Shown: positions 3,351 through 51,174, counted from the stretch's first letter. The stretch: DNA of 64,000 nt from Candidatus Saccharicenans sp. (GCA_035416665.1 DAOLNQ010000001.1:158733-222732), one strand, 5' to 3'. Program-made: numbers and translations. Notes: generated by a model not told the origin, from the sequence alone.

Positions 3351-3420
3351 TCTGGCTCGAATACATGGTTAGGCTTATTGCAATAATAATAGCAATTTAT
3401 AGCCCGAAGGAGGTTTCTGA

Positions 3421-4743: not shown

Positions 4744-4766
4744 GTTCATATTACCAACTGACGATC

Positions 4767-4800
4767 AAGGGCTGCCCCGGCGGGCAGCCCTTTTTATTTC
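4767..4800 (+). terminator. Rho-independent terminator after gltA
   Basis: A GC-rich hairpin (AGGGCTGCCCCGGCGGGCAGCCCT) is followed by TTTTTATTT. Confidence 0.6.
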
Positions 4801-4925
4801 TCTATTGGGATAGAATTATACGTTGGAGAAGTTCCACCTTTTTATTTCCTGTTTAATTTAAACAGCTCCTCCTCTCATCCCAATCACAGTTTGAATTTTC
4901 CTCCCAGCTAAACTAAAATCGGGGC

Positions 4926-6571: not shown

Positions 6572-6631
6572 GCCGTTTGCTGTTGACCAAAAACGACTGA
6601 CAGATAAGTCCGGTTAAAGGCGACTGATATT

Positions 6632-33485: not shown

Positions 33486-33494
33486 GGTTTGAAG

Positions 33495-34043: not shown

Positions 34044-34054
34044 GGTTTAAGACC

Positions 34055-35503: not shown

Positions 35504-36060
35504 TGAGCCCGCGTAAAGATAGAGGCCTTAGAATTCTGATCTTCGGTATTGGTAACCCGGCACGTCAGGATGATGGATTGGGACCGGCTTTCATTAGCCG
35601 CCTGGAAAAAGCCAGAATACACAGTTTGACCTTAGAAGCTGATTATCAACTGCAGGTAGAAGATGCCCTTCTTTTTTCTGAACATCAACTCGTCGTGGTT
35701 GTTGATGCTATAAAATCAGGCCGCAAGCCTTTTGTTGTCAAAAGAATAGAGCCCGCTGAGGATTCGAGTTTTACCACTCACCACCTTTCTCCGGAAGCTC
35801 TTCTTTACCTGACCCAGATCCTCTATGAGAGAAGTCCCGAAGTCTGGCTTCTGGGCATCAGAGGCTATAAATTCTCGCTCGGGGAAAAGCTCAGCCCGAA
35901 AGCCCGGGCCAACTTTGATCAAGCCTATAAGTGTTTTATTAAGTTTTTAAAAATCGTAACAACTTCTGGGCTGGCTTCTGCTATAATTGATTTTCAACCA
36001 CTAACATCATCTCGAGGTAAAAGACATGGAGCAAAAGAAAAAAGAATTGCTGGTTCTTGA
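35503..36060 (+). CDS. hoxW: Hydrogenase maturation endopeptidase (HoxW/HycI family)
   Basis: ILIFGIGNPARQDDGLG is the signature start of hydrogenase C-terminal processing proteases. GTG start overlaps the hoxH stop. Confidence 0.75.
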   Translation: MSPRKDRGLRILIFGIGNPARQDDGLGPAFISRLEKARIHSLTLEADYQLQVEDALLFSEHQLVVVVDAIKSGRKPFVVKRIEPAEDSSFTTHHLSPEALLYLTQILYERSPEVWLLGIRGYKFSLGEKLSPKARANFDQAYKCFIKFLKIVTTSGLASAIIDFQPLTSSRGKRHGAKEKRIAGS

Positions 36061-36703
36061 GGATATCCTCGGCTCAAATAAAAAGATAGCCGGTCAGATC
36101 AGAAAGAAGCTGGAAGAGCATGGCATCCTGGCAGTTAATCTGCTGAGTGCGCCCGGATCAGGAAAAACCTCGCTTCTCGAAAAAATCGGGTTAAAACTTA
36201 AAGATAACTACCGGCTGGGGGTGATTGAAGGCGATATAGAAACAGAAAGGGATGCCGAAAGAATCAGAAAAATCGGTCTTCCAGCCTGGCAGATTACGAC
36301 TCACGGTGCCTGCCACCTGGAAGCCAAAATGCTGGCTCAAATTTTTGATCAAATACCGGCTGACCTCGATTTTTTATTTATAGAAAACGTGGGCAATCTT
36401 GTTTGTCCGGCCAGCTTTGACCTGGGCGAAGGGCTGCGTTTTGTTTTGCTCTCGGTACCGGAAGGTGATGATAAGCCCAAAAAATATCCTGAAGCTTTTC
36501 TCACCTCACAGGTTCTCGTTCTGACTAAATGTGACCTTTTGCCCTATTTGCCCTTTGACACTGACCGTGTCATCAAAGAAGCTCTGGAAATTAATCCTCA
36601 TCTTAAAGTTTTTAAAACTTCTGCCACGACGGGAGAAGGTCTGGACGAGCTTTGTGCCTTTTTAGAAGCAGAACTCAAAGAGAGGCGCAGTCAGCATGCA
36701 TGA
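36026..36703 (+). CDS. hypB: Hydrogenase nickel-incorporation GTPase HypB
   Basis: P-loop LLSAPGSGKTSLL plus a G-domain. Confidence 0.85.
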   Translation: MEQKKKELLVLEDILGSNKKIAGQIRKKLEEHGILAVNLLSAPGSGKTSLLEKIGLKLKDNYRLGVIEGDIETERDAERIRKIGLPAWQITTHGACHLEAKMLAQIFDQIPADLDFLFIENVGNLVCPASFDLGEGLRFVLLSVPEGDDKPKKYPEAFLTSQVLVLTKCDLLPYLPFDTDRVIKEALEINPHLKVFKTSATTGEGLDELCAFLEAELKERRSQHA

Positions 36704-37070: not shown

Positions 37071-37907
37071 TCAAAAATAGCGGGAGGCAGCAGGGTGGTG
37101 GAGAATAAGGGCTGTCGTCGTCAGTTCTGGTACCAGCTGAAAAGTTTCTGTCAATGAGACGCCTATTCCCTTGCCGTCTAATAGCTCCAGAATCTTTTTC
37201 TGATCCTCAAGGCGCGGAAAAGAAGGGTAGCCAGGGCTGATTCTACGACCGCGGTATTTTTTCTTCAGGCAGGCATCATAATCCGGACTGCCTTCAGATT
37301 CCAGACCCAGTTCCTGCCTTATTCTAAAATGGAGATATTCTGCCAGAGCTTCGGTTAACTCCGCACCCAGACCATGCCAGAGAAAATAATCAGCATACTC
37401 GCCGCTAGTCCATTTTTCTTTAATAAAGGCCTCAAGTTTATGGCCCGTGGTCACCAGAGAAAAGGCCACGACATCCTTTTTTTCTGCTTCTCGGGGCAAA
37501 AAGAAATCAGCAGCACTTATCTCTGGAAAAGACTTAAGCAAAGGGAAACTGAAGACAAAGGGTGCCTCGTCACTCTCGTCCCTAAAGACCAGAAGCTTAT
37601 TTTTCTGGCGGCAGGCCGGAAAATAGCCATAGGCGGCCTGAAATTGTAGTAGCTTTTTGTGGCGAGCTTCTTCTAAAAAACCGGAAAGAAGTGCATCCGG
37701 AATGAGATGGGCGTTGACCGGCAGGCTGGTTTTGTCCTTCAACTGCCAGCGGGTGGAAATAAGGACTTTGACATTAAGGAAAGGCAGAACTTTCTCTGGC
37801 GATATTTTCTTTAAATGGCGGCTCCCCCAGAATGGTGGGTGTGGTATTTCCTCGGGGGCTAACCGCCTGATTTTAATCTCTTCTTTTGTCATTTCCCTGC
37901 TGTTCAT
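37071..37907 (-). CDS. Stand-alone methionine-synthase reactivation (AdoMet-binding) domain protein
   Basis: The C-terminus RRISPGYPSFPRLEDQKKILELLD...GVSLTETFQLVPELTTTALILHHPAASRYF parallels the MetH activation domain (...RVSPGYPACPDH...LTESFAMWP...SHP...YF). Confidence 0.75.
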   Translation of the reverse strand: MNSREMTKEEIKIRRLAPEEIPHPPFWGSRHLKKISPEKVLPFLNVKVLISTRWQLKDKTSLPVNAHLIPDALLSGFLEEARHKKLLQFQAAYGYFPACRQKNKLLVFRDESDEAPFVFSFPLLKSFPEISAADFFLPREAEKKDVVAFSLVTTGHKLEAFIKEKWTSGEYADYFLWHGLGAELTEALAEYLHFRIRQELGLESEGSPDYDACLKKKYRGRRISPGYPSFPRLEDQKKILELLDGKGIGVSLTETFQLVPELTTTALILHHPAASRYF

Positions 37908-38178
37908 CCTGTCATCCTTACTTCTGGCCTTTTGCCCTTTTAAATAATTCGCCTGGCTGAAGGGCTTGTCTTCTTTCCATTTCTTGCCTTTTTCTTGCCT
38001 TTACTCTCTTGAGCATGATATCCATTGTCCTCCACTAAGCCGGATCAGCCGGCATCATTCTCAGCCTGATAAAGAATTGACCAGAAAAATCAAAAGCAGA
38101 GACACAGACTCAAAAAGTTTACCCTCTATCCAACTTTTTTCCTCGTTCATAATCATAAGCTCTAACCTCGTTGAGCTT

Positions 38179-40746
38179 CTAGACATTAGCCCTGCCGGCT
38201 GATTTTTCTTTTTTCCCTGATAGATTTTTCATAATTTCTAAAGCGGCCATGGCATCCCGGCCATAATAAACCTCGCCTCCGTAGGCTGGTTTTAGAACTT
38301 TCTCCACAAAGCTCCGGTCCAGAGCTGCCCCGCCGCATAGAACCGGAACTTTAAGCCCATGTTCTCTTAACGTCTCCAGATAATCTTTCATCACCCAGCA
38401 GGATTTTACCAGCAAGCCACTCAAACCGACGGCCTGTGGTCTGAATTCTTCTATGGCTTTGATAATCTCTTCCACCTTCTGATTTATACCAAGATTAATA
38501 ACTTCAAAGCCATTGGCTTCAAGAATCAAAGCGACGAGATTCTTGCCGATATCATGGACATCACCCTGAACCGTAGCCAGGACAATTTTACCTTTTCTTT
38601 CTTCGCCGCTCCCCGCCGGAAGATATGGTTTGAGAACAGTCAAAGCTTTTTTAACCGTTTCAGCTGATTTAAGAACAAAGGGCAGCGGTAAATTCTGCTG
38701 GCTGAAAAGTTCACCGACTATGTCCATGCCTTTTAAAAGAAAATTATTGATTATCTCCAGCGGTGAATATTTTTTAAGAAGCTCCTGGATAAGGACCTCC
38801 ATTTGAACTGATTCTCCATTTACCACTGCTTCTACCAGGGCTTTCTCCGGTCGGACAGCCTGCCGTGAAGCTGACGGAGTTGTTGAAGTCAGCAAAAATT
38901 TTTCGCCCAGAAGCTCAGTGAGAGGGTCATAACCGGGGCGGCGGTGGTTTAGAATTAAATCCTGGCCCAGCTTTAAAATTTTCTCGGGTATTCTCTGAAG
39001 CGGCATTATTTTCGAATGATGAATAATCGCTGCATCGAGACCGGCCTTTAGCGCCAGGGATAAAAAAATAGAGTTTATATAAGGCCTGAGCTCGGCCGGC
39101 AAACCGTAAGAGACATTGCTTATGCCCAGAATCGTCTGACACTCTGGAAATCTTTCCTTAAGAAGCCTGATGGCAGTTAAAGTCTCCCGGGGAGCGTCAG
39201 CATAGTGATGGTCTCCGCTAGCCAGCGAAAGAGTCAGCGGATCAAAGAAAATATCAGAAGGCTTGAAATTATTTTTATTAACCAGAAGATCATAAAGTCT
39301 CAAAGCAACGCGCAGTTTTTCTTCGGCCTTAAGCGCCAGCCCATTCTCATCAATGGTCAGGGCAACGACTGCCGCCCCGAATTCCTTAGCCAGGTCTATC
39401 GTCTCCTGCGCCCGCTTCCCTCCATCTTCCAGGTTAATCGAGTTAATGATGACTTTACCACCGTAGTTTTTAAGCGCAGTCTCCAGAGCCGAAATATTAC
39501 TGCTATCAATCATGACGGGAATTTTGAGCTGGAGATTTAATGTCGGCATAAAAATTTTCCAGTCCGCTGCTTCCTCCCGGCCGGATGTGGCCAGAGCCAC
39601 ATCGGTCAGATGAGCTCCTTCCCGCTCGGCCTCGACTGCCACTTCCATCATCCCCTGAAAATTTTCTGAGAGCAGCAGTCGCCGGAAGGCCTGGCTCCCA
39701 TTGACATTGGTTCTCTCGGCAATAATTAAAGGCCGCGGCTTGACCCGAAAAGGCTGAGCTCTGAAGGTCGAAGCACAGCCGGGGGAAAAGCGGTAATGTC
39801 TCCGGACCGGATGAAGACCGTCAACTTCTCTTACCACCGCTTTTAAATGCTCGGGTGTTGTTCCGCAACAGCCGCCGACCAGACGCACCCCGAACTCCTC
39901 CACAAATCTTTTAATGTCCGTAGCTAGCTCTTCCGGAGAAAGATCATAGATGTATTTTCCCTCTTCTAGAACCGGACGTCCGGCATTGGGCAGAGCCGAA
40001 AGAAGAAAAGGTGAATTCTTTTTTAACTGCCGCAGCGCCTCAACCATAGCCTGCGGACCATCGCCGCAATTCAGTCCTAAAGAAAAAAGAGGAAAACTGG
40101 AAAGAGCCGTGATGAGGGTCAGCATGTCTGTTCCCAGAAGAAGACACCCCGCCTTATCCACCGTCACCGTGACCATCACCGGCAGTCGCTGATTTTTTTC
40201 TTTTTGAACCCTGAAAATAGCAGCCAGTGCGGCTTTTATCTGGAGAAGATCCTGGGCAGTTTCGATCTGAAGAAGATCCACCCCACCTTCGACGAGACCC
40301 GAGACCTGCTCGTAATAAGAATCTTTCAATTTATCAAAACCGATCTGTCCCAGGCTGGGCAACTTTTTCCCCGGTCCAATTGAGCCCGAAACAAATCTCG
40401 GGCGCGAAGCGGTGGTAAAAGAAGAGGCAATTTCCTTAGCCAGCCGGGCGGCGGCCAGATTAATCTCGTAAGCTTTATCCCCGAGGCCGTATTCTTCCAG
40501 GACAGCGCGATTAGCTCCAAACGTATTGGTTTCAATAACTTCACAACCGGCTTCAAGAAAAGAAGCATGGACTTCACCTACCACCTGCGGCCGGGAAAGG
40601 TTAAGAATTTCATAGCAACCTTCCTTTCCGCGGAAATCGTCTGGCGTTAGACTGAATTTCTGGAGACTGGTGCCCATAGCGCCATCAAAAATTATGACCT
40701 TCTCTTTAGCTATATTTTCAATCCGGCTCTGTTTTCTTTTTCTCAT
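38179..40746 (-). CDS. metH: Cobalamin-dependent methionine synthase core (Hcy, pterin and B12 domains; no reactivation domain)
   Basis: Hcy-binding N-terminus (IIFDGAMGT), pterin-binding TIM barrel, and a B12 cap plus Rossmann fold with GDVHDIGKNLV (DxHxxG). At 855 aa it is about 370 aa shorter than E. coli MetH. Confidence 0.9.
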   Translation of the reverse strand: MRKRKQSRIENIAKEKVIIFDGAMGTSLQKFSLTPDDFRGKEGCYEILNLSRPQVVGEVHASFLEAGCEVIETNTFGANRAVLEEYGLGDKAYEINLAAARLAKEIASSFTTASRPRFVSGSIGPGKKLPSLGQIGFDKLKDSYYEQVSGLVEGGVDLLQIETAQDLLQIKAALAAIFRVQKEKNQRLPVMVTVTVDKAGCLLLGTDMLTLITALSSFPLFSLGLNCGDGPQAMVEALRQLKKNSPFLLSALPNAGRPVLEEGKYIYDLSPEELATDIKRFVEEFGVRLVGGCCGTTPEHLKAVVREVDGLHPVRRHYRFSPGCASTFRAQPFRVKPRPLIIAERTNVNGSQAFRRLLLSENFQGMMEVAVEAEREGAHLTDVALATSGREEAADWKIFMPTLNLQLKIPVMIDSSNISALETALKNYGGKVIINSINLEDGGKRAQETIDLAKEFGAAVVALTIDENGLALKAEEKLRVALRLYDLLVNKNNFKPSDIFFDPLTLSLASGDHHYADAPRETLTAIRLLKERFPECQTILGISNVSYGLPAELRPYINSIFLSLALKAGLDAAIIHHSKIMPLQRIPEKILKLGQDLILNHRRPGYDPLTELLGEKFLLTSTTPSASRQAVRPEKALVEAVVNGESVQMEVLIQELLKKYSPLEIINNFLLKGMDIVGELFSQQNLPLPFVLKSAETVKKALTVLKPYLPAGSGEERKGKIVLATVQGDVHDIGKNLVALILEANGFEVINLGINQKVEEIIKAIEEFRPQAVGLSGLLVKSCWVMKDYLETLREHGLKVPVLCGGAALDRSFVEKVLKPAYGGEVYYGRDAMAALEIMKNLSGKKEKSAGRANV

Positions 40747-40787
40747 TTATCATCTCCTCTTTTTCCTGCCTTCCCTATTTGCTTTAT

Positions 40788-41741
40788 TTACTTTTTGAAC
40801 AAGATTCTTAACAAGTCTATCACCGGGTCCTTCTGACTCATGGTAAAAATATGAATTCCGGGAGCGCCTGCCTCCAGTAATTTTTCAGCCAGTTCCAGAC
40901 CAAACTTCAAGCCGGTTTTCTTCTCCTCTTCAGCCGTCCGGCAGGCTTCGAAAGCCTCGACCATGGCCGGTGGCAGGCTGACTCCAAAAGTGGCTGGTAT
41001 TTTTGCCAGCTGCTTTTGATTATAGAGCAGTTTAAAACCAGGTATAACCGGCACCTTTATCCCGGCTTTCTTTAAACGGCCAAGATAATTTTGATAAGTT
41101 TCGGCTGAAAAAAACATCTGGGTAATAATAAATCGGGCGCCGGCCTCAACTTTCTCCTGGAGATGTAACAGATCAAACTCCACGCTCGGCGACTCAGGAT
41201 GCTTTTCCGGATAACCAGCAACGCCGCAGCAAAAATCAGTCGCCGCCGCTGGTTTCGCTCCTTCCAGGTAATAACCGTGATTTAAATTATCAATCTGCCT
41301 GACCAGTTCACAGGCATGGGCGTGGCCGCCAGGCTCCGGTCTGAATTCTTTTTCCCCTGGTTGCGGATCGCCGCGGATGACAAATATATTCTCGAGTCCC
41401 AGATAGTGAAGTTCAAGCAGAGCATCTTCGAGTTCATAGCGGTTAAAACCGGCACAGATCAGATGCGGCACCGTTTCTACCCCGAATTTGTGCTTCAGGC
41501 TGGCCGAAATGGCTACTGTCCCCGGTCTTCGCTGGCGGCGGATCTTAATTTCCTGACCATTTTCGACCGACCACCCATTTTGAGGCTGGTGAAAAGTCAC
41601 ACTGATAAAGAGAGGATCAAATTCAAGAAAAGGATCAATCAGGTGATAGAGTTCCTCGACATTTGAACCTTTATCGGGCGGTAGAATTTCGAGCGACAGA
41701 ACTGGCTTTTTTCTGCCGATCAGGGCTTCGCTTACTTTCAT
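40788..41741 (-). CDS. metF: 5,10-methylenetetrahydrofolate reductase
   Basis: MetF-family TIM barrel (LSLEILPP..., FISVTF..., HLICAG). AGGAGG RBS. Confidence 0.85.
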   Translation of the reverse strand: MKVSEALIGRKKPVLSLEILPPDKGSNVEELYHLIDPFLEFDPLFISVTFHQPQNGWSVENGQEIKIRRQRRPGTVAISASLKHKFGVETVPHLICAGFNRYELEDALLELHYLGLENIFVIRGDPQPGEKEFRPEPGGHAHACELVRQIDNLNHGYYLEGAKPAAATDFCCGVAGYPEKHPESPSVEFDLLHLQEKVEAGARFIITQMFFSAETYQNYLGRLKKAGIKVPVIPGFKLLYNQKQLAKIPATFGVSLPPAMVEAFEACRTAEEEKKTGLKFGLELAEKLLEAGAPGIHIFTMSQKDPVIDLLRILFKK

Positions 41742-42195: not shown

Positions 42196-43869
42196 TTGAA
42201 AAAACAGGCCTATAATTTTCTAAAGCTTCAGGCCGAGCGAGACAAGGCGAGTAAGCAGGAGAGAGGAGAGCTTATTCAGCTGTTTCCGTCCGAGTCTGAT
42301 ATTCCCGAAAAATTCCGCCTGAATTCTAATCTCGACCAGCACCGGGTTCTCATCGATGGGCAGATTATTCCCTGGAAGGGGGCTCTAGCTGAGGTATTTT
42401 CTCCTATTTATATCAAAAACGGTGATTCCTTAGACAGAAAAAGGATTGGCTCGTATCCTGCAATGACCCGCCAGGCGGCACTGAAGGCACTGGATTCCGC
42501 CAGAAGGGCTTTTTCTTCTGGAAACGGAACATGGCCTTCATTTCCTCTCTCCAGGCGGATCGAATCGATTGAAAAGTTTCTGGAACGATTAGAAAACCAG
42601 AAAGAAAACATTCTCAGAACTCTGCTGTGGGAAATCGCCAAGCCTTACCATGAACTGGAAGATGAATTTGAAAGAACCAGGCAATATATTGAACAGGTAA
42701 TCAAGGTTGCCGGTCAGAAAGAAAAAGATTCCTTTCTGCTAAAAAAGGAAAAAGGAATCTTAGGCCTTATCCATAATGAACCCTATGGAATCGCTCTGTG
42801 TCTGGGACCGTATAACTATCCCCTTTTTGAAACTTTCAGCCTGGTTTTACCTGCTCTCTTAGCGGGTAATGTGGTGATAATCAAACCCCCCAAATTTGGA
42901 GTGTTGTTTTTTGACTTTTTGTTAGAAGCTTTTCAGGACTGCTTCCCGCCGGGTGCAGTGAACATCATTTCTGGCGATGGTAAAAAGATTATTGAACCGC
43001 TGATGAAAAGTGGAGAGGTAGATGTTCTGGCTTTTATCGGTTCAGCTGAGACTGCTAACCGCTTGATCAGTCTGCACCCCAGAAAAAATAGATTACATAG
43101 CTTATTGGGTCTCGGTGCAAAAAACGCGGCGATAGTTTTGCCTGATGCCGACCTCGATGTGGTTGTCGCGGAATCGGTTTTAGGAGCACTGGCTTTCAAC
43201 GGCCAGCGCTGTGCAGCTTTGAAAATATTTTTTGTGCATAAAGAAATTGAGGCAACTTTCAGAAAACGGCTGCTTGATGCCGTGAGCAAAATTAACCTGG
43301 GAATGCCCTGGATGGAAAGGGTAAGGATCACACCGATAGTTGACCCCGAGCGGCTTCCCTATCTGCATGAACTGGTCAGGGAGGCCCTCAATAAAGGAGC
43401 CAGGATAGGTAACAAAAATGGTGGAAGATCACTCGAATCAATTTTTGTCCCGGCTGTTTTGTATCAAGTCAATTCAAAAATGAGGATTTACTGGGAAGAA
43501 CAATTCGGACCAATTATACCCGTTGTCTCTTACCACGATATAAAAGAACCGGTAACTTATATCAGTAATTCTCCCTTCGGACAGCAGTTGAGCATTTTTG
43601 GTACAAAAACCAAGACATTGATAGAGCTGATTGATCTGGTCAAAAACCAGGTATCACGGGTAAATATTAATACCAAATGCCAGCGCGGTCCTGATCTTTT
43701 CCCTTTCACCGGTAAAAAAGATTCGGCTCACGGAGATTTTTCAATTTTGAATATCCTCGATTATTTCTCATCGCAAGCTGTCGTAGCAGCAAGAGAAACT
43801 GAGCTCAGCGAAGCTCTCTTCCAAAGCCTTCAACAACCAAAACATTTAGATATAAACCAGGGATCATGA
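42196..43869 (+). CDS. GapN-like aldehyde dehydrogenase-family protein (557 aa) with the general-base Glu of the ELGGK motif apparently replaced by Gly
   Basis: Colinear with non-phosphorylating GAPDH/ALDH: GPYNYP, AGNVVIIKPP, catalytic Cys in FNGQRCAALK, EEQFGP, and INTKCQRGPDLFPFTGKKDSAHG. The segment aligned to xLELGGKxxxIV reads SLLGLGAKNAAIV. Confidence 0.8.
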   Translation: MKKQAYNFLKLQAERDKASKQERGELIQLFPSESDIPEKFRLNSNLDQHRVLIDGQIIPWKGALAEVFSPIYIKNGDSLDRKRIGSYPAMTRQAALKALDSARRAFSSGNGTWPSFPLSRRIESIEKFLERLENQKENILRTLLWEIAKPYHELEDEFERTRQYIEQVIKVAGQKEKDSFLLKKEKGILGLIHNEPYGIALCLGPYNYPLFETFSLVLPALLAGNVVIIKPPKFGVLFFDFLLEAFQDCFPPGAVNIISGDGKKIIEPLMKSGEVDVLAFIGSAETANRLISLHPRKNRLHSLLGLGAKNAAIVLPDADLDVVVAESVLGALAFNGQRCAALKIFFVHKEIEATFRKRLLDAVSKINLGMPWMERVRITPIVDPERLPYLHELVREALNKGARIGNKNGGRSLESIFVPAVLYQVNSKMRIYWEEQFGPIIPVVSYHDIKEPVTYISNSPFGQQLSIFGTKTKTLIELIDLVKNQVSRVNINTKCQRGPDLFPFTGKKDSAHGDFSILNILDYFSSQAVVAARETELSEALFQSLQQPKHLDINQGS

Positions 43870-46800
43870 GTAAAGAGAAAACAACTGAAAATTTACAGTC
43901 AGCAATGAGCATTTCATCCGGGGGTGCTGGTGGAATAACCATTCCAGCCAGGCATCTCAGTCTTCTGGACTTGTTCACTGACTTTTATGGAACTCATAAG
44001 CGGCTAAAAGAATTTCTGGAAAAGTTTCATCAACCGCACACTCAGAGCGACCAGCTGGCAGAAGAACTCAGGGGAATCAGCCTCGGAGATTTCTACAAAT
44101 ACAACTTTAACGACCAGGGGCAGCTGGCCCTGCAAATCCTGGCTGAAATTTATGCCGAACTAATTAATCGGGAAAACAGCGGGCCGGTTAAAGAAAAAAT
44201 TATCGGCTATTTTTTTGAATATCTAAGGAAAATACTGGAGGACAGTAGAGAGCATCTCTCCCGAAATATCCCGGTTGTCCTCTGGGCTCTGGATTTCCTG
44301 CGGCAGAGACCTGAGGAAGAATCCGGATCGATGAAAAAAATCACCAGAGACCTGAAAGCTATTCTTAAATTTTTTATTGATGCCGGTCTGCAAGTTCCGG
44401 TCTATAATCTGGCAGAGCTAAGCTATCGCGCCTTTCGGGCATCTTTTAACTTCTGGCTGCAGCAGCCTGATCCGCTTCGTGAATTTATTGAGTTCAATGG
44501 GCAGGCCGAGGCCCGGGCCAGATATCAATCACTGGTCGCCCCGATCAGCCATGATCATCTACGGTTACTGTTGAGGCGGTTGGAAGAGGCTTTTCCCCCG
44601 GCCAGTTTGGAAAACTATGAGGCCTTTAAAATTTATTTAGAACTTCCCGATTACTATCAAATCGCCGACGGCTATCTAAGAATCGCCCACGAGCTAGAGG
44701 TGGCCCCCTTAGATAACCAGCGAGGAGAATCTTTCCATGTTGATTTCCTGTTAAAAATCATCAGCTTACCTGCCCTCCAGGACATTCATCGTGAAGCGCT
44801 GATGGAAATCAACCGTTCATTCGGCCGTGCCCTGGCAGAGAAATCCGCACCAGAAGCCGAAGAATTTATCAGAAAGATGTTCCAGGTGCTGCGGGAAAAC
44901 ACTGCCTCCAGCCACCATACTGAGACCATTTTTAGCTTTATTAATGCTGCCGCCCGGGAGGTCTTTAAGCTCAACCAGCATTCCCTGGTCAATACTCTTA
45001 TCGAGGAAATTATTCTTTTCGGATTTCAATCACCCAATATTCAAGGTACAACAACTGATTGGGAAGTAAAATTTAATCCTTGGCATATCAAGAATATTCG
45101 TTCCTGGCTCGAGATTATTAGGCTGAAGCCCCGCTGGACAAAACAGCTGCTATCAGCCTTGATCATCAACCTTAAAATCGGAGGCGTCTTTGTCCGGGAT
45201 ACTGATCTTTTGCAGAAAGATATTTCTGCCCTTCTAAATTCAGATATCACTCCTGCCTTTAACCTGATCATGCAACTGGCCAGACTGCTTCCGATTTTTT
45301 TCAATGAAATCAATGCTGAAGGCGAACTGCGGGAGGTCTCGATCCGCATGGATGACATTACTGGCCGCCGCGATCCCCTGATTCATTTTGTCAGAAAACA
45401 ATCTCATGTAGAAAGTAACAGTAGGCTTATTCCTTTTGTTGAGGCTATTGTTCGCTACTGGTATTCTGGAAACAAAGAAGACATCCGCCCCTTCCTGCCC
45501 GAGGAGGTTTATGAACAAATTGAAGGCTGTTCAGAGATATACGAAGGGATGCATAAAATCTTTAGGGTGCTCTACAAGGAGGTCCATCAGAATCCGCGCC
45601 TTTTTCTGCAGTGGGAACCATCTAAAATTCAGAGGATTATCCAGAAAATCCCCAAGGTAACAGACGACGATAAGGAAAAGGCTATTCTGGTCCTGCGTTT
45701 TTATCAATTGCTCTATAAAAAATACAACATTCATTATCAGGATGTGATCAAAAGCCTGCAATCTTCATATATTTTTGACCAACAGAAGCTGACCTCCTTG
45801 CAGAAAGCCCTCTTACGGAAAGATTATTACCAGAGTCTGGTTATACTTATGGATTTTCTGAGTCTCTTAAAAGAGCGTATTGTTTCTCCGGAAAAAACAG
45901 AAGCCTTTGAAGATATTTATCATAAAAGACACATTGCGGCCGGCATCCCGTCCATGTATGGTGTCTATCGTGAGCCCAAATTCGATGCTCTTGGCCTTTA
46001 TCTCAGGTTACAATGTCTGGCCAACGTCCTTCTGGAACAGCTCATCAATTCCCTCAATATCCAGTTCATCACCAAAACCACTCTGGTAAAAATTGATAAA
46101 TATCTTCGTCTGTTTATCAAGGCCCTTCAACTGGAAGGGATTTCCACAGAAGGGCTTGAATCAAAGACGAAATATCTCCAGGGAGCTCTCCAAATCAAAC
46201 GTTTTAGCCTCGATCAATACATTGATATCTTCCGTTTCATTTCCAGGGGTATCCAGGATATCATCCGGCTCTACTACATAGACCCTCATCAGGCCAATCT
46301 CCGGATAGTAATTCGGCAGTTTCTGGCCAGACAGTATGGTGATAAAATGACCAGCCTGTCCAGAGAGGAAGAGGAAGCAGCAGTCTATATGCAGACCGAG
46401 AATTTTCTGCGCTCAATTATTGCCTCAAGTTTTGGGCTGCAGACGCTCGATAACTTTATCAGCAATATTCTCAAAACACTTTGCGCTGAACAAGAGAAAT
46501 TCAAAACTCACAGCCACATGTTGAATATTCTGATGAGTTACAATCCAGAGATAATCATCACGCCTCTTTACAAGAAGCCACAAAAAAAAGATGACCAAAT
46601 TCTTCTTGGTAATAAAGGCTATTTTCTCAAGCAACTTTATTCTCTCAGTTTCCCCGTTCCCCCGGGCTTTGTGCTGACCACAGAAATTTTTAGATGCCTG
46701 GAGGCTATTCTTGGTTACCAGGAAATTTACCAGGATATGAACATGAGGCTCAAGCGCGAACTTAAAAAGCTGGAAAAAATAACCCGCCGGCGCTATGGTC

Positions 46801-48086
46801 ACCCTCAAAATCCTTTACTGCTGTCCGTGAGAAGCGGCTCGGCCATCTCTCTGCCAGGCATGATGAGCTCATTTCTGAATGTCGGTATCAATGAGGAAAT
46901 TGCTGAAGGTTTGAGTCAGAAAAAGGGCTATGCCTGGGCCGCCTGGGATTGCTACCGCCGTTTTCTTCAGTTCTGGGGTATGTCAGAGGGCCTGGACCGT
47001 GATTTCTTTGATGAAATCATCGATGATTTTAAGGAAAAATATAACGTCTCCAAAAAGCTATATTTCACTCCCGATCAAATGCGCGAGATCGCCCTTGCTT
47101 ATAGAAAAGCGCTCGAGGATAGTGGAATCGCGGTTGAAGATGACCCGCCTGAACAGCTGAGAAAAGCTATTTTCAAAGTAATTGAGTCCTGGCATTCTCC
47201 TCGAGCCAAATTGTACCGACAAGAAATGAACATTTCAGACAAGTGGGGGACAGCTGTTGTTGTTCAGTCGATGGTCTTCGGTAATCTGGACGAATGGTCT
47301 GGTTCAGGAGTTACCTTTACCCGTGATCCTAAGGGCCTGTCAAGTTCTGTTCTTCTTTCAGGTGATTTCATTTTCGGAGGTCAGGGTGACGATATAGTAG
47401 CCGGACTGGTAGAAACATATCCTATTTCCGAAGCTCAAAGGAAAAGCGAAAAAAGAGACAGCGAAATTTCTTTAGAAAACAAGTTTCCAGCTGTTTATGC
47501 CGAGTTGAAGCGCCTGGCAGAAATATTGATTTACGACCAGGGTTTCGGTCACCAGGAGATTGAATTTACCTTTGAAAATAATTCCAGGGAAGGACTGTAT
47601 ATCCTGCAGACTCGTGATATGCCGCCGCCGGAACGCTTCAAGTTGAAGTCTTTCACCAGAACACCCAAGCTGGAGAAGTCTCTGATCGGATATGGCATCG
47701 GTATTGGCGGCGGAGCGCTGTGCGGAAGAGCTGTTTTCTCCGAGCAGGAAATCAAATTTTTCAGCCAGAAAGAACCTCAGACCCCTTTAATTTTAATTCG
47801 CCCGGACACTGTTCCCGACGACATCGGACTCCTGCGGCAGGTTGACGGATTACTGACCGCTAAAGGAGGAAGCACTTCCCATGCTGCAGTTATAATTCCT
47901 CAGCTAAAAAAAGTTGGCGTAGTTGGTCTCAGGAACCTGAAAGTCTATGAGAAGAACGGCTACAGCCTGATCAACGGATACAAGATCAATAGCGGCGATT
48001 TTATCGGCATTGATGGCTGGAGCGGCTCTGTTTACCTCGGCAAGCACCAGATTGAAGAAAAAGCAATAACTCCCGCCCGAATATGA
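43866..48086 (+). CDS. 1406-aa protein with an N-terminal ~870-aa uncharacterised helical region and a C-terminal pyruvate-phosphate-dikinase-like ATP-grasp domain plus phosphohistidine swivel domain; the PEP/pyruvate TIM barrel is absent
   Basis: From about nt 46600 the protein is colinear with the PPDK N-terminus: LLGNKGYF, PLLLSVRSGSAISLPGMMSSFLNVGINEE, YRRFLQFWG, WHSPRAKLYRQEMNISDKWGTAVVVQSMVFGN, SGSGVTFTRDP, GLYILQTRDM. The His domain is at GLLTAKGGSTSHAAVI. The ATG overlaps the upstream TGA (ATGA). Confidence 0.8.
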   Translation: MSKEKTTENLQSAMSISSGGAGGITIPARHLSLLDLFTDFYGTHKRLKEFLEKFHQPHTQSDQLAEELRGISLGDFYKYNFNDQGQLALQILAEIYAELINRENSGPVKEKIIGYFFEYLRKILEDSREHLSRNIPVVLWALDFLRQRPEEESGSMKKITRDLKAILKFFIDAGLQVPVYNLAELSYRAFRASFNFWLQQPDPLREFIEFNGQAEARARYQSLVAPISHDHLRLLLRRLEEAFPPASLENYEAFKIYLELPDYYQIADGYLRIAHELEVAPLDNQRGESFHVDFLLKIISLPALQDIHREALMEINRSFGRALAEKSAPEAEEFIRKMFQVLRENTASSHHTETIFSFINAAAREVFKLNQHSLVNTLIEEIILFGFQSPNIQGTTTDWEVKFNPWHIKNIRSWLEIIRLKPRWTKQLLSALIINLKIGGVFVRDTDLLQKDISALLNSDITPAFNLIMQLARLLPIFFNEINAEGELREVSIRMDDITGRRDPLIHFVRKQSHVESNSRLIPFVEAIVRYWYSGNKEDIRPFLPEEVYEQIEGCSEIYEGMHKIFRVLYKEVHQNPRLFLQWEPSKIQRIIQKIPKVTDDDKEKAILVLRFYQLLYKKYNIHYQDVIKSLQSSYIFDQQKLTSLQKALLRKDYYQSLVILMDFLSLLKERIVSPEKTEAFEDIYHKRHIAAGIPSMYGVYREPKFDALGLYLRLQCLANVLLEQLINSLNIQFITKTTLVKIDKYLRLFIKALQLEGISTEGLESKTKYLQGALQIKRFSLDQYIDIFRFISRGIQDIIRLYYIDPHQANLRIVIRQFLARQYGDKMTSLSREEEEAAVYMQTENFLRSIIASSFGLQTLDNFISNILKTLCAEQEKFKTHSHMLNILMSYNPEIIITPLYKKPQKKDDQILLGNKGYFLKQLYSLSFPVPPGFVLTTEIFRCLEAILGYQEIYQDMNMRLKRELKKLEKITRRRYGHPQNPLLLSVRSGSAISLPGMMSSFLNVGINEEIAEGLSQKKGYAWAAWDCYRRFLQFWGMSEGLDRDFFDEIIDDFKEKYNVSKKLYFTPDQMREIALAYRKALEDSGIAVEDDPPEQLRKAIFKVIESWHSPRAKLYRQEMNISDKWGTAVVVQSMVFGNLDEWSGSGVTFTRDPKGLSSSVLLSGDFIFGGQGDDIVAGLVETYPISEAQRKSEKRDSEISLENKFPAVYAELKRLAEILIYDQGFGHQEIEFTFENNSREGLYILQTRDMPPPERFKLKSFTRTPKLEKSLIGYGIGIGGGALCGRAVFSEQEIKFFSQKEPQTPLILIRPDTVPDDIGLLRQVDGLLTAKGGSTSHAAVIIPQLKKVGVVGLRNLKVYEKNGYSLINGYKINSGDFIGIDGWSGSVYLGKHQIEEKAITPARI

Positions 48087-48099
48087 AACTCAGGCCATC

Positions 48100-49377
48100 T
48101 TATTTCATCATTTTGTGAACATAGACGGCTAAATCGCCCATCCGGTTGGTATAGCTTCCGTATTCATTGTCGTACCAGCCAAAAATCTTGGCATGAACTA
48201 CCGGAATCTTCAGGGTCTTAAGAGGAAAAGAATCCAGAACCTCCGGGGAAAGCCCGGGAATATGGGCGAGGTTAACATCAATAAAAGCCGTTCTGGTATG
48301 ATTAAATTGGCCCTCAATAACGATCGAAGCATTAATACCAGCTACGTCCGCTGAAACATTTTGTTCTTCCGAGTAAACAAGCAGGCGCTCCGGATCCTTA
48401 GCTTCAGCCTGTTTATAAATATCATTAATGGTCTCAGTATCAATATGGCTGATTTCCCCATCCTGTCCCATCTGGCTTTGAAAAGTCACGTTTAAGATAA
48501 TCAGTGACTCAGTCTTGGTAGGTATTCTGATAGAATCGGCCATGAACCCAATCTCTTTCACTTCTGGTATGGCCAGGGCCAGGGCTTCAGCCGCATTGGT
48601 GGAAGTCAGAATGATATTGTCCAGGATGCTCCTTGATTTTCTCAAATCTTTGGCTCCGGCCTTCGGAACGCTGTCCAGGACGCACTGAGAGTTTGTAACC
48701 GCATGCACGGTGGACATGGAGGCTGTCAGCATACAACGGGTCTTTTCATTTTCCAGAAGGGGTTTTATCATATGGGCCAGACCCGTAGTCGTACAGGAAG
48801 CAGCCGAAATCAGGGTATGCTGACCAGGATTGAAGGCCTGGTGATTTATTCCATAAATCAAGGTTACCGCATCTTCAGGCATCGGCAAAGCTTTATTTTT
48901 AATCTTGAAGGCAGCTGAATTGATGACTACCTTCGCTCCAGCCAGATGATGACCGCGGATGGCACCTTTTTCGCTATCCGGACTGGCGGTCGGGTCAAGG
49001 AATTCACCCGTGCACTCAGCCACCAGCTCAACTCCATAGTCCCGCCAGGAAATATCCTTAGGATTCCGGGCCTTCCTTAAAACTGTAACCGGGATTCCGT
49101 CTATAAGTAGTTTCCCCTCCTTTTCGTCAGCGATTTTGACGATCGGCTGGGCATTGATCCCGTATAAAAAGGTATGGATCAGCCCATAAGTTGAATCCTT
49201 CTCGATGGTTTGAGCCACTGCCTCCATGCCCATTCCGATTTCCCGGCCCTGATTGACAACGATTTCCTTAAAATATTTTCTCCCGACGTGATGCCACAAA
49301 GTAAGCTTGCCAATCCTTCCTAACCCGTTGATTCCCAGGACGGGTTTCTTCTCAGCAAAAAAATCAGTCCCGTTCAT
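48100..49377 (-). CDS. Divergent glyceraldehyde-3-phosphate dehydrogenase-family protein (425 aa, ~90 aa of insertions)
   Basis: GINGLGRIGK NAD loop, catalytic SAASCTTTGLAH, STVHAVT (His176 equivalent), RKSR (Arg231 region), and C-terminal WYDNEYGSYTNRMGDL. AGGAG RBS 7 nt before the ATG. Confidence 0.8.
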   Translation of the reverse strand: MNGTDFFAEKKPVLGINGLGRIGKLTLWHHVGRKYFKEIVVNQGREIGMGMEAVAQTIEKDSTYGLIHTFLYGINAQPIVKIADEKEGKLLIDGIPVTVLRKARNPKDISWRDYGVELVAECTGEFLDPTASPDSEKGAIRGHHLAGAKVVINSAAFKIKNKALPMPEDAVTLIYGINHQAFNPGQHTLISAASCTTTGLAHMIKPLLENEKTRCMLTASMSTVHAVTNSQCVLDSVPKAGAKDLRKSRSILDNIILTSTNAAEALALAIPEVKEIGFMADSIRIPTKTESLIILNVTFQSQMGQDGEISHIDTETINDIYKQAEAKDPERLLVYSEEQNVSADVAGINASIVIEGQFNHTRTAFIDVNLAHIPGLSPEVLDSFPLKTLKIPVVHAKIFGWYDNEYGSYTNRMGDLAVYVHKMMK

Positions 49378-50832: not shown

Positions 50833-51174
50833 TCAGGAAGGGAGAACTCTCGATAGAATCCAGCTTACAATGCTGATCAAAACCGAACCAAACACCGCTC
50901 CCCAAAAACCATTGACATAAAACCCCTTGACTAAAGCTGAGACCAGCCAGAGCATCAACCCGTTGATAACCAGCAAGAAAAGTCCCAGAGTCAACACCGT
51001 GATGGGAAAGGTCAAAAAAACCAGGATGGGTTTGATGATGGCATTGACGATCCCCAGTAGAAAAGCAGCCACCAGAGCGGCCAAAAAGCCATCAACCCGG
51101 ATCATCTTTGGAAAGAGATATGAGATGATCAGGACGGCCACCATGTTAATGATTAAACGTACGATGAAAGGCAT
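50833..51174 (-). CDS. Small four-TM membrane protein of the phage-holin-like (DUF360) family
   Basis: 113 aa, almost entirely hydrophobic helices. No phage neighbours. Confidence 0.55.
   Translation of the reverse strand: MPFIVRLIINMVAVLIISYLFPKMIRVDGFLAALVAAFLLGIVNAIIKPILVFLTFPITVLTLGLFLLVINGLMLWLVSALVKGFYVNGFWGAVFGSVLISIVSWILSRVLPS

Follow-up and report, generated by a model that had tools for sequence, protein, structure and literature searches.

PPDK carries out two steps on its nucleotide side: ATP and a histidine give His-PP and AMP, and His-PP and Pi then give His-P and PPi. VadK (Rv1127c) of M. tuberculosis is a PPDK without the PEP/pyruvate domain that autophosphorylates on His; its gene adjoins methylcitrate-cycle genes and the protein binds PrpC and PrpD (PMC13400623). 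Among aldehyde dehydrogenases (ALDHs), GAPN uses Glu268 as its base for deacylation, and mutating this residue to Ala (E268A) leaves the enzyme trapped in its thioacyl form (PDB 2ESD); in RlGabD, the corresponding E261A change lowers activity 63,000-fold (PMC10599462).

Here we analysed a 64,000-nucleotide stretch of DNA from Candidatus Saccharicenans sp. (the window), which harbours an ALDH gene, a giant PPDK-like gene and a divergent GAPDH paralogue (GAPL). The giant and GAPL genes are neighbours in hundreds of anaerobe genomes, and this pairing points to a step of lower glycolysis or gluconeogenesis that has yet to be described.

Locus organisation

42196..43869, + strand: ALDH gene (ORF1), GapN-like aldehyde dehydrogenase, 557 aa, TTG start
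43866..43869, + strand: ATGA stop/start overlap of the ALDH and giant genes
43866..48086, + strand: giant dikinase gene (ORF2), 1,406 aa, ATG start
48087..48099, no strand: 13-nt spacer that separates the stop codon of the giant gene from that of GAPL, the two genes being convergent
48100..49377, - strand: GAPL gene, 425-aa divergent GAPDH paralogue, Pfam Gp_dh_N and Gp_dh_C

The ALDH/giant junction reads ...CAG GGA TCA TGA, with ATG AGT AAA in the +1 register, confirming by sequence read the overlap that the original prediction had placed between both ORFs. An identical ATGA overlap was present in loci L004, L007-L009 and L029. No terminators fit in the 13-nt spacer between the giant and GAPL. 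As full-length homologues were found in the hundreds for each of the ALDH, the giant and GAPL, none of the three is a chance ORF.

The giant protein

43866..46550, + strand: N-terminal domain (aa 1 to ~895), all-alpha with one beta hairpin, proposed acceptor domain or third active site
45003..46025, + strand: most conserved core of the N-terminal domain (aa 380-720)
45924..45962, + strand: invariant loop K687-R-H-I-A-A-G-I-P-S-M-Y-G699, at the tip of the sole beta hairpin
46551..47630, + strand: PPDK-type ATP-grasp nucleotide/PPi domain (aa ~896-1255), aligning with residues 17-338 of C. symbiosum-type PPDK
47679..48071, + strand: phosphohistidine swivel domain (aa 1272-1402), Pfam PEP-utilizers E 1.8e-12, aligning with PPDK residues 390-518
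47880..47882, + strand: codon of the catalytic His1339, in GGSTSHAAV of the swivel domain

ORF2 had been predicted to end in an ATP-grasp domain of PPDK type and a His swivel domain, without a TIM barrel, and both Pfam and the PDB alignments agree. Pfam placed PPDK_N at residues 914-1202 and PEP-utilizers at 1307-1386 and found no PEP-utilizers_C (PEP/pyruvate) barrel in the giant; PDB PPDKs aligned only to residues 912-1251 and 1272-1402 (E 9e-71). An ordinary split PPDK was also considered, and none of the 92 giant loci examined harboured a separate ORF for a PEP/pyruvate domain. The kinase half scored 355 bits on the PPDK model TIGR01828 (cutoff 843) vs. 55 bits on the PEP synthase model, and K917, R989, E1231, E1233, Q1248, R1250 and H1339 were invariant across the giant family. 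Homology shows that the giant is a swivelling-histidine dikinase, with an ATP-grasp domain that keeps all of the PPDK residues for both nucleotide-side partial reactions and with His1339 carried on a mobile domain.

The N-terminal region, originally described as 870 unrecognisable residues, is nearer 895 aa long and was indeed unrecognisable by all methods tried: residues 1 to ~895 gave no match in Pfam, NCBIfam, PDB sequences or by fold. Identity between phyla was 45-50% and the predicted model had a pLDDT of 83.5 (92.6 in the core), which mark the domain as a conserved, folded unit. Fourteen polar residues (H407, D445, D447, R489, D496, R510, K511, H514, K619, Y620, K687, R688, H689 and S696 of the core) were invariant among 80 sequences, including relatives only 33-39% identical. 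The strands of the beta hairpin span residues 681-687 and 696-702, and the model of the full N-domain gives the K687-G699 loop a pLDDT below 50, in keeping with a mobile loop. Weak fold matches were to helical solenoids and bundles, which usually serve as scaffolds.

Such solenoid- or bundle-like matches fit the main rival to our preferred reading. Here the giant would be a VadK-like, PPDK-derived histidine kinase that autophosphorylates and makes no metabolite, its helical N-domain docking and controlling GAPL or other glycolytic enzymes. VadK provides the precedent of a PPDK without the PEP/pyruvate domain (PMC13400623), the kinase half scored 273 bits on NF004531, the NCBIfam model of VadK-type truncated PPDK (below its 456-bit cutoff), and some giant homologues bear an N-terminal hemerythrin sensor domain. 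However, the 14 invariant charged/polar residues cluster in mobile loops (a DxD pair, a KRH triplet), in a pattern typical of a catalytic phosphoryl-transfer site and not of a binding surface, and for a scaffold, 45-50% identity between phyla along 900 aa would be high. We consider this regulatory role improbable.

The ALDH

43108..43110, + strand: codon of ALDH Gly305 (motif LLGLGAK), at the general-base Glu position (Glu268, GAPN numbering)
43210..43212, + strand: codon of the catalytic Cys339 (GQRCAA), from alignment to GapN and orthologues

ORF1 matched Pfam Aldedh (E 7e-90), and its best solved relatives in the PDB sequence search were the GapN structures 9dla, 3prl and 2esd (E 4e-66 to 5e-58). 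In the phmmer alignments to 9dla and 3prl, 'LGLGAKNAA' of ORF1 pairs with 'LELGGKDAA' of GapN without gaps, and therefore Gly305 occupies the general-base position; a GapN-like ALDH with its catalytic Cys and without the general-base Glu is thus what the original prediction had described. The protein keeps Cys339, Asn207 (PYNYP) and the EEQFGP motif, and its TTG start and N-terminal sequence are conserved among orthologues. The general-base position was Gly in 120/120 of the closest homologues (59 GLGAK, 41 GLEAK, the remaining 20 mostly GLDAK), evidently under purifying selection. Single positions suggest a preference for NADP.

The wider ~540-aa family has Glu or Asp at +2 (LGLEAK or LGLDAK). 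As the relatives with this acidic residue stand alone, in unrelated gene contexts, the family may hydrolyse normally via a shifted base. The ALDH could then be an ordinary hydrolytic, non-phosphorylating GapN with a different base or water-activation route, lying beside the kinase simply through a shared role in lower glycolysis; stand-alone 'GapN' proteins occur in many genomes, and the remaining catalytic and GapN-like substrate-site residues are all kept. We find this account of the ALDH rather unlikely. The clade of the window (LGLGAK, 59 sequences) has Gly at both 0 and +2, the +2 acidic residue being lost as well, Glu loss traps the GAPN thioacyl enzyme and costs more than 10^4-fold in a related ALDH (PMC10599462), and the stop/start overlap with the kinase gene suggests stoichiometric co-production.

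GAPL

48793..48795, - strand: codon of GAPL Cys195
48703..48705, - strand: codon of GAPL His225
49240..49260, - strand: cofactor-specificity position (VVNQGRE)
48190..48315, - strand: large family-specific insert

The GAPDH-like gene had been noted at these coordinates (48100-49377, minus strand), and our analysis bore this out. GAPL scored 282.6 on TIGR01534, under the 367.2 cutoff, and keeps the catalytic Cys195 and His225 together with Thr228, Arg284 and the DLRKSR motif, i.e. the thiol, the His and both anion sites of phosphorylating GAPDH. The GAPL-specific inserts are also conserved in distant deep-branch loci. Because the alignment shows that the NAD-specifying Asp is not kept, GAPL probably uses NADP(H), a preference suggested by a single position.

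Gene neighbourhoods

The neighbourhood survey covered 92 related giant loci, 83 of them clustered for the ALDH count and 69 evaluable for GAPL adjacency. GAPL was adjacent and convergent to the giant in 59/69 evaluable loci (spacer 10-600 nt) and lay within 6.4 kb in 6 more. In 5/6 deep-branch loci (L087, L088, L089, L095 and L175) the two genes were co-directional, with GAPL just downstream of the giant; one deep-branch giant homologue fused to hemerythrin had no adjoining GAPL. Reciprocal look-ups begun from GAPL found the giant gene in 3/3 cases. GAPL, not the ALDH, is the near-universal partner of the giant, in both gene orientations. Convergence speaks against simple operon stoichiometry, as a regulatory kinase would have it, but the deep branch has the giant and GAPL in a single operon and the survey found no conserved response regulator or other signalling partner near the giant.

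ALDH orthologues flanked the giant in 11/83 clustered loci, all from the Acidobacteriota/Aminicenantes branch and including the GLEAK form in L018, and were absent beside it in the other 72. The original prediction, which named the GAPDH paralogue only briefly, had taken the translationally coupled ALDH and kinase as the functional unit, with the kinase phosphorylating a carboxylate or other acceptor and the Glu-less ALDH reducing or oxidising the product via an acyl-enzyme; on that model the GAPDH paralogue would be incidental. The recurrent ATGA overlap, the conserved Gly at the general-base position and the 11 ALDH-bearing loci fit that model. However, the ALDH is confined to one phylum-level branch, it is GAPL that tracks the giant family-wide, and near relatives of the ALDH are found on their own in unrelated contexts. 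We therefore regard this model as very unlikely and the ALDH as a lineage-specific add-on, found only in that branch, beside a giant/GAPL core. The sequence observations behind the prediction all hold; the co-occurrence that it proposed to check was near-universal between giant and GAPL and rare between giant and ALDH, and the ALDH-centred module is not what is conserved.

Glycolytic genes formed a second group of neighbours: canonical gap lay near the giant at 19 loci, tpi at 16 and pgk at 9, with at least 4 different arrangements. In Syntrophales the giant/GAPL pair lies among gap, pgk and tpi, and in L087 a glycerate kinase gene is directly upstream. A calcineurin-like phosphoesterase gene was directly upstream in 14 loci. 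No conserved transporter, polymer-metabolism or cofactor-biosynthesis genes were found near the giant in the survey. These data bear on a dikinase with another acceptor (glycerate, another phospho-sugar acid, a cofactor or a polyanionic polymer), for which GAPL and the glycolytic neighbours would reflect shared regulation or precursor supply and not a consecutive reaction. The acceptor domain has no homologue and so leaves the substrate unconstrained, the N-domain has numerous conserved basic residues, barrel-less dikinases act on acceptors as diverse as rifampin (PMC4844700), hydroxyphenylethanones (PMC12167813) and prodiginine precursors, and the upstream phosphoesterase would fit. We nevertheless give another acceptor only a low probability: the sole universally linked gene encodes an enzyme with an acyl-phosphate product or substrate, the second-tier neighbours are gap, pgk, tpi and glycerate kinase, and genes for the other pathways are not conserved nearby.

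Proposed function

Our preferred reading, held tentatively and at somewhat less than an even chance, is that the giant combines a swivelling-histidine dikinase with a new acceptor domain and cooperates with GAPL at the 3-phosphoglycerate/1,3-bisphosphoglycerate/triose-phosphate node. The conserved core of the module would be the giant and the convergent GAPL. The 895-aa N-domain would replace the PEP/pyruvate barrel as a third active site, made up of the invariant Arg, Lys, His and Asp cluster that includes the D445-x-D447 pair and the mobile K687-R-H loop, and the phosphohistidine would hand its phosphoryl group to this site or collect one from it. Gene context suggests the reaction 3-phosphoglycerate + ATP + Pi <-> 1,3-bisphosphoglycerate + AMP + PPi, with GAPL interconverting the acyl phosphate and glyceraldehyde-3-phosphate, so that the pair would run alongside PGK/GAPDH as a PPi-linked route with AMP/PPi coupling. 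By textbook hydrolysis energies, 3-PG to 1,3-BPG would be ~15 kJ/mol more favourable by this route than by PGK. The data strengthen the idea of acyl-phosphate chemistry at a GAPDH-like step, already part of the original prediction. In the Aminicenantes branch, the ALDH would have no residue for thioacyl hydrolysis and would most plausibly exchange the thioacyl intermediate with phosphate, ProA-like chemistry on an ALDH fold, serving the giant as a second, NADP-linked acyl-phosphate oxidoreductase.

Several points stand against this reading. Only gene context points to the acceptor substrate. The giant/GAPL pair occurs together with PGK and canonical GAPDH, often side by side, and the pathway is therefore complete without it. 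For the binding of a C3 acid, a helical domain of 895 aa is large, and its weak matches are scaffold-like. Giant and GAPL are not co-transcribed in most genomes, as they are convergent there, and the fusion to a hemerythrin sensor domain hints at regulation.

Comparison with known systems

In PPDK (EC 2.7.9.1; Clostridium symbiosum 1KBL/1DIK) and the giant alike, the ATP-grasp domain comes first and the phosphohistidine swivel domain second, and the giant keeps all catalytic residues of the nucleotide and PPi sides as well as the T-S-H motif. Unlike PPDK, the giant and all neighbourhoods examined lack the C-terminal PEP/pyruvate TIM barrel, and the giant has the N-terminal domain of new fold instead. 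VadK likewise derives from PPDK, lacks the PEP/pyruvate domain and is encoded next to its presumed metabolic partner enzymes; it is ~490 aa long, has no added domain and is proposed to be regulatory (PMC13400623), whereas the giant bears a large and highly conserved additional domain whose invariant residues look catalytic.

RPH (PMC4844700), HpeHI (PMC12167813) and PigC/RedH share the logic of the giant, with ATP-grasp and His swivel domains feeding a non-barrel substrate domain. The original analogy with rifampin phosphotransferase stands at this general level and not as family membership: the giant scored 22 bits on NF041857 (cutoff 999), RPH has its substrate domain placed between ATP-grasp and His domains while that of the giant is N-terminal, and no sequence or fold similarity was found between RPH-type substrate domains and the N-domain. 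PEP synthase, to which RPH is related, uses water; the giant is PPDK-like, and PPDK uses phosphate.

GapN (S. mutans 1EUH/2ESD; 9DLA, 3PRL) and ORF1 have in common Cys302, Asn169, an EEPFGP-type motif, the Arg before Cys and the Arg in 'QRGPD'. ORF1 differs by Gly in place of Glu268 and by extensions of ~75 aa (N-terminal) and ~40 aa (C-terminal), and scored 201 bits on the archaeal GapN equivalog (cutoff 780). GAPL shares both Pfam domains, the catalytic Cys and His, Thr179, Arg231 and the SxCTT and WYDNE motifs with type I phosphorylating GAPDH (Thermus 1VC2, G. stearothermophilus 1GD1). It differs by ~90 extra residues distributed over at least 7 family-specific inserts, by replacement of Asp32 (VVN-x-GR) and by Arg195 -> Lys, is 28-35% identical to the canonical gap products encoded beside it in other genomes, and is labelled by NCBI only as 'NAD-binding domain-containing protein'.

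In proposed function, the pair would resemble PGK + GAPDH, ProB/ProA, Ask/Asd, ArgB/ArgC and carboxylic acid reductase: it would convert a carboxylate to an acyl phosphate and reduce this with NAD(P)H via a Cys-enzyme thioester. The giant kinase has no homology to PGK, ProB or Ask and, unlike them, would activate its substrate via phosphohistidine with release of AMP + PPi. Overall, the proposed pathway would consume ATP to AMP + PPi and then NADPH, a net stoichiometry similar to that of carboxylic acid reductase.

Organisation of the locus and its surroundings

The ORF list gave three features at the locus:
42196-43869, + strand: ORF1, a GapN-like aldehyde dehydrogenase (ALDH), 557 aa, TTG start
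43866-48086, + strand: ORF2, the dikinase-like giant protein, 1,406 aa, ATG start
48100-49377, - strand: GAPL, a divergent GAPDH paralogue, 425 aa, convergent with the giant gene

The junction sequence (CAG GGA TCA TGA / ATG AGT AAA) demonstrated that the ATGA overlap of ORF1 and ORF2 at 43866-43869 is real. Between the giant and GAPL stop codons lie only 13 nt (48087-48099), and this distance was 10-20 nt across the Aminicenantes clade (loci L007-L013), so that each transcript must either overlap the other or end within the coding sequence of its neighbour. Two phyla keep the convergent arrangement; the deep branches are co-directional. A defence system was rejected, as none of the PADLOC models matched the ALDH, the giant protein or GAPL. 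Rfam detected four tRNAs elsewhere in the window and no other RNA element. Promoter-like sites in the window were at chance level, and terminator-like sites were somewhat in excess (14 vs. 8.7 ± 2.8 by chance), none of them interpretable.

Several other features were observed in the window. Cobalamin methionine synthase is split (37071-41741, - strand) into an 855-aa MetH core without the activation domain (38179-40746) and a separate 278-aa ORF carrying Met_synt_B12 (37071-37907, - strand), with MTHFR directly upstream of the MetH core (40788-41741, - strand). A NAD(P)-linked [NiFe] hydrogenase cluster (30992-36703, + strand) encodes a NuoE/NuoF-like fusion subunit, a NuoG-like Fe-S subunit, both hydrogenase subunits (small and large), an unassigned 185-aa ORF and a HypB-like GTPase. 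An AMP-binding (adenylating) domain at the N-terminus and a GNAT acetyltransferase domain at the C-terminus are joined in a 1,540-aa ORF (21677-26299, - strand); the roughly 800 residues in between have no Pfam match. Between a PhzF-family gene and SppA lies a small membrane protein of 113 aa (50833-51174, - strand) that belongs to the Phage_holin_4_2 family (E 5e-36), and no further phage genes were seen close by.

The kinase half of the giant protein

Pfam identified PPDK_N (residues 914-1202; PF01326, E 1.3e-27) and PEP-utilizers (1307-1386; PF00391, E 1.8e-12) in the giant protein, and no further domain. Together with alignments to solved PPDKs, which matched residues 912-1251 and 1272-1402 (E 9e-71), this bore out the original prediction of a PPDK-type ATP-grasp domain and a His swivel domain without the PEP/pyruvate TIM barrel. 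The aligned part of the ATP-grasp domain corresponds to PPDK residues 17-338, and GGSTSHAAV (His1339) in the swivel domain aligns with PPDK GGMTSHAAV. The protein ends 4 residues past the swivel-domain alignment and has no match to the barrel (PF02896), which was also missing from the full-length homologues among the matches listed and from all six homologues scanned; the full-length ones listed carry both of the Pfam domains seen in the giant protein. A split PPDK was rejected: no PEP-utilizers_C ORF was present in the window, and no barrel ORF was conserved as a neighbour in any of the 92 neighbourhoods compared.

Lys22, Arg92, Asp321/Glu323, Gln335/Arg337 and the catalytic His, which we take to be the catalytic residues of C. 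symbiosum PPDK, align with K917, R989, E1231/E1233, Q1248/R1250 and H1339, all of them invariant across the giant family. Both nucleotide-side dikinase partial reactions are therefore very likely intact. The giant protein scored 355.1 bits against the PPDK model TIGR01828 (cutoff 843.45) vs. 55 bits against the PEP synthase model TIGR01418, so the kinase half is, by profile scores, PPDK-like and not PEP-synthase-like. It fell under all curated NCBIfam cutoffs, including those for truncated mycobacterial PPDK (NF004531, 273.1 bits vs. 456) and rifampin phosphotransferase (NF041857, 22 bits vs. 999).

A predicted new N-terminal domain

The region preceding the kinase half (N-domain) had been described as 870 aa of unrecognisable sequence; no homologue was found, and its size is about 895 aa. 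The N-terminal 900 residues gave a confident fold from a 90-sequence alignment (pLDDT 83.5, pTM 0.76), with about 47 helices and one beta hairpin (681-702); the invariant loop K687-R-H-I-A-A-G-I-P-S-M-Y-G699 forms the tip of the hairpin and was modelled with low confidence. Modelled alone, the most conserved core (380-720) reached pLDDT 92.6 and pTM 0.90. Foldseek gave a TM of at most 0.20, and a sequence profile matched none of the PDB sequences; on the evidence available, the N-domain thus appears to be a new domain.

Fourteen polar residues of the core (H407, D445, D447, R489, D496, R510, K511, H514, K619, Y620, K687, R688, H689 and S696) were invariant over 80 sequences, including relatives only 33-39% identical. 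With its many Arg, Lys, His and Asp residues, a DxD pair and a location mostly in low-confidence AF2 loops, this set would sooner suggest an active site for phosphoryl transfer than a passive scaffold.

Size and spread of the giant family

A 'PEP/pyruvate-binding domain-containing protein' of Candidatus Saccharicenans (Aminicenantes) matches the giant protein of the window with 100% identity. Full-length homologues of about 1,400 aa, with 45-50% identity in the N-domain, occur in Syntrophorhabdus, Syntrophus, Smithella and other Desulfobacterota. When 1.84 billion cluster representatives (50% clustering) were searched with a profile, the result was 704 members (255 at E <= 1e-30), full-length members being about 1,335-1,540 aa, and relatives were confirmed in 168 GTDB species genomes. 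The family ranges over Syntrophales, Syntrophorhabdia, Aminicenantes and deeper unnamed branches, and the only annotations its members carry are 'pyruvate phosphate dikinase' and 'PEP/pyruvate-binding domain protein'. Six members were scanned: PPDK_N was present in all six, the swivel domain in five, and an extra N-terminal hemerythrin (HHE cation-binding) domain in two (P0257, P0267). MAGs labelled Bathyarchaeia/Eubacteriales (L014, L011, L058) carried giant, GAPL or ALDH genes mostly close to those of the window (giant 73-75% and GAPL 88-89% identical in L014 and L011; giant about 50% and ALDH 53% identical in L058), and these are probably mis-binned contigs that do not reflect the true distribution.

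GAPL is the persistent partner of the giant gene

We compared 85 non-redundant giant loci, 5 from protein look-ups and 80 from the GTDB species-genome scan. GAPL (65-99% identical to that of the window) was directly downstream and convergent, at a stop-to-stop distance of 10-600 nt, in 59 of the 69 evaluable loci; it was on the opposite strand within 6.4 kb in 6 more, and was not seen within the flank in 4. Reciprocal look-ups from GAPL proteins found the giant gene adjoining in 3/3 cases. In the divergent loci L087, L088, L089, L095 and L175, where the giant protein is 33-39% and GAPL 49-55% identical to those of the window, GAPL follows the giant gene on one strand with short gaps. Loci L087-L090 and L095 came from a metagenome scan in which the GAPL alignment included canonical GAPDH, most of its 80 loci being ordinary gap. 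No GAPL was found near the hemerythrin-fused homologue of L174 (1166-5788). As the linkage persists through orientation change and deep divergence, gene order argues strongly for a joint role of the giant protein and GAPL.

By contrast with this linkage, the module of ALDH and kinase in the original prediction holds for one branch: the ALDH was upstream of the giant gene in just 11 of 83 clustered loci, all in the Acidobacteriota/Aminicenantes branch. Clustering of all ORFs of 92 neighbourhoods ranked the neighbours after GAPL as canonical gap of about 332 aa (19 loci), triosephosphate isomerase (PF00121, 16), a calcineurin-like phosphoesterase (14), the ALDH (11) and phosphoglycerate kinase (PF00162, 9). 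Gene order varied from locus to locus: for example, L077 and L079 have gap-giant / GAPL-tpi-pgk, L053 and L065 have giant / GAPL-tpi-pgk-gap, L049 has gap-pgk-tpi ... giant / GAPL, and L035 has tpi / giant / GAPL-pgk followed by canonical gap (tblastn). In L087, a deep-branch metagenome contig, the giant gene stands between glycerate kinase (PF02595, E 1e-161), directly upstream, and GAPL, all three on one strand (1547-8239); a MarR regulator and an MFS transporter come after GAPL. From these gap, tpi, pgk and glycerate kinase neighbours, the pair is placed in lower glycolysis or gluconeogenesis, at the triose-phosphate / 3-phosphoglycerate (3-PG) node. Replacement of PGK by the pair was ruled out, since pgk adjoins it in 9 loci and the two coexist.

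In the 14 loci with the calcineurin-like phosphoesterase (about 380 aa, PF00149), which are of the Syntrophorhabdus type (in L019 at 6699-7841), its gene immediately precedes the giant gene and shares its strand. The phosphoesterase could be a third, lineage-specific component, e.g. a phosphatase or pyrophosphatase.

The strongest rival to a metabolic enzyme is a regulatory histidine kinase of the VadK kind. VadK, a PPDK lacking the barrel, autophosphorylates and binds PrpC and PrpD, and its gene adjoins those of the methylcitrate cycle (PMC13400623). Hemerythrin fusions, a helical N-domain and the convergent giant/GAPL arrangement would suit a regulator, which accounts less well for the catalytic-looking invariant set and for the operon arrangement of the deep branches.

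GAPL, a GAPDH paralogue that probably uses NADP(H)

GAPL has the Pfam domains Gp_dh_N and Gp_dh_C. Cys195 (SAASCTTTG), His225 (TVHAVTN), Thr228 and Arg284 (SIRIP), equivalent to GAPDH Cys149, His176, Thr179 and Arg231, are invariant, and a DLRKSR motif has Lys for the second Arg of DLRRAR. At 425 aa vs. about 330 aa in canonical GAPDH, GAPL carries inserts of about 90 extra residues that are kept even in the deepest branch. The NAD-specifying Asp (VND) of canonical GAPDH, kept in the canonical gap genes neighbouring GAPL, is replaced in GAPL by a variable residue and Gly-Arg (VVN-x-GR), from which we infer that GAPL uses NADP(H). GAPL scored 282.6 bits with TIGR01534, under the cutoff of 367.2, and its NCBI name is merely 'GAPDH NAD-binding domain-containing protein'.

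The ALDH has lost the canonical general-base Glu

ORF1 belongs to the ALDH superfamily (Pfam Aldedh, PF00171, E 7e-90, residues 80-527, 302 bits vs. cutoff 23), and its best solved relatives are GapN structures (9dla, 3prl, 2esd and 1euh, E 4e-66 to 1e-57), in agreement with the GapN-like assignment made originally. The absence of the general-base Glu was likewise upheld. The segment 'mLELGGKDAAlVLeDADL' of GapN aligns with 'lLGLGAKNAAiVLpDADL' of ORF1 without gaps against 9dla and 3prl, which puts Gly305 (43108-43110) at the Glu268 position. An alternative alignment restoring the Glu was rejected, as the flanks are gap-free and the E/D at +2 in relatives is absent from the clade of the window. 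ORF1 retains Cys339 (GQRCAA; Cys302 equivalent), Asn207 (PYNYP; Asn169) and EEQFGP (the cofactor-ribose Glu399 motif). At what we take to be the cofactor-discriminating position it has Lys (KPPK vs. KPPT in GapN), which is compatible with NADP. Its score with the curated GapN equivalog NF040869 was 201.2 bits vs. a cutoff of 780. Neither a bacterial GapN equivalog nor a ProA model was among the best 25 of 40 NCBIfam matches; on these matches, ORF1 does not appear to be a ProA by sequence.

Gly occupied the Glu268 column in 120/120 closest homologues, and the 59 closest had LGLGAK. The wider ALDH family of about 540 aa (47-56% identity) has LGLEAK or LGLDAK, with the acidic residue two positions downstream, and on this pattern may use a shifted catalytic base; no characterised member was found. 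This 'GapN' family is large and its genes stand alone in unrelated contexts in Syntrophus, Cloacimonetes and other anaerobes (P0193-P0240; L167-L170); a member also lies next to the giant gene in L018. Comparison of LGLGAK with LGLEAK/LGLDAK indicates that neither the canonical base nor the shifted acidic residue survives in the clade of the window, and conservation of everything else at 55-99% identity speaks against decay. Hydrolysis of the thioacyl enzyme in GAPN relies on water activated by Glu268 (PMC10599462), E268A traps the thioacyl intermediate (PDB 2ESD), and the equivalent mutation in a related ALDH lowered activity 63,000-fold (PMC10599462).

A possible phosphoglycerate dikinase

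Homology shows the predicted giant protein to have ATP-grasp chemistry and a mobile phosphohistidine, the predicted GAPL to be a GAPDH paralogue with thiol, His and anion sites intact, and the predicted ALDH to be unable to hydrolyse by the standard route. The N-domain would be a third active site, and the simplest substrate joining it to its only universal neighbour would be the acyl phosphate 1,3-bisphosphoglycerate (1,3-BPG), in the reaction 3-PG + ATP + Pi <-> 1,3-BPG + AMP + PPi. Phosphorylation of a carboxylate by a phosphohistidine has a precedent in succinyl-CoA synthetase. Standard hydrolysis energies are -49 (1,3-BPG), -46 (ATP to AMP + PPi) and -62 kJ/mol (PEP). From textbook energies, the proposed reaction is near equilibrium (about 4 kJ/mol) vs. 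+19 kJ/mol for PGK in the gluconeogenic direction, so that the route might either pull gluconeogenesis at low energy charge or regain ATP from AMP + PPi in glycolysis. GAPL would interconvert 1,3-BPG and G3P, and its inserts might, speculatively, dock it to the giant protein and channel the labile intermediate. In Aminicenantes, the Glu-less ALDH might interconvert 1,3-BPG and G3P too, by phosphorolysis or formation of its thioester.

Our tentative proposal, which we regard as possible rather than probable, is that the giant protein is a '3-phosphoglycerate, phosphate dikinase' on a new fold, passing the acyl phosphate to a dedicated GAPDH of the NADP type and, within Aminicenantes, to a phosphorylating relative of GapN with the ALDH fold as well. 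Alternatively, it may act on a different acceptor substrate.

The steps from G3P to 3-PG are, to our knowledge, the only part of the Embden-Meyerhof trunk without a PPi- or AMP-linked variant in bacteria, and we found none in the literature searched. The host organisms degrade fatty acids, alkanes and aromatics syntrophically in methanogenic systems, where the bookkeeping of ATP, AMP and PPi decides whether they can grow at all. What makes the locus highly interesting is that an unrecognised reaction of central metabolism in syntrophs and Aminicenantes may lie behind it. If the proposal is true, energy-limited syntrophs and fermenters gain a PPi-coupled alternative to PGK/GAPDH, paralleling PPDK vs. 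pyruvate kinase and PPi-PFK vs. ATP-PFK, and assigning the giant enzyme would alter metabolic models of these organisms. Its acceptor domain would be new to the swivelling-histidine enzymes, and if the ALDH part holds, the GapN lineage gains a phosphorylating member. Were the giant protein a regulator, a conserved GAPDH-dedicated histidine kinase would still be new.

Comparison with known systems

A literature search found no phosphoglycerate dikinase, PPi-dependent PGK or PPi-linked PGK bypass, and no description of the giant family in Syntrophus, Smithella or Aminicenantes. Its domains place the giant protein among the swivelling-His dikinases, a known mechanistic class. It has the ATP-grasp and swivel domains with the T-S-H motif in common with PPDK, whereas the C-terminal barrel is found in PPDK only. 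VadK and truncated PPDK (NF004531, PRK05878) measure about 490-534 aa and have no domain besides the ATP-grasp and His domains, to which the giant protein adds one of 895 aa. Nor does it conform to the order of rifampin phosphotransferase (ATP-grasp / substrate domain / His domain). GAPL has its domains and Cys/His/anion sites in common with type I GAPDH, but is longer and under the equivalog cutoff. Glu268 is required in hydrolytic GapN and absent from ORF1; ProA also misses the general base, a resemblance only. What appears new is the acceptor domain, the partnership with a dedicated GAPDH subfamily and, in this genome, also the coupled Glu-less GapN relative.
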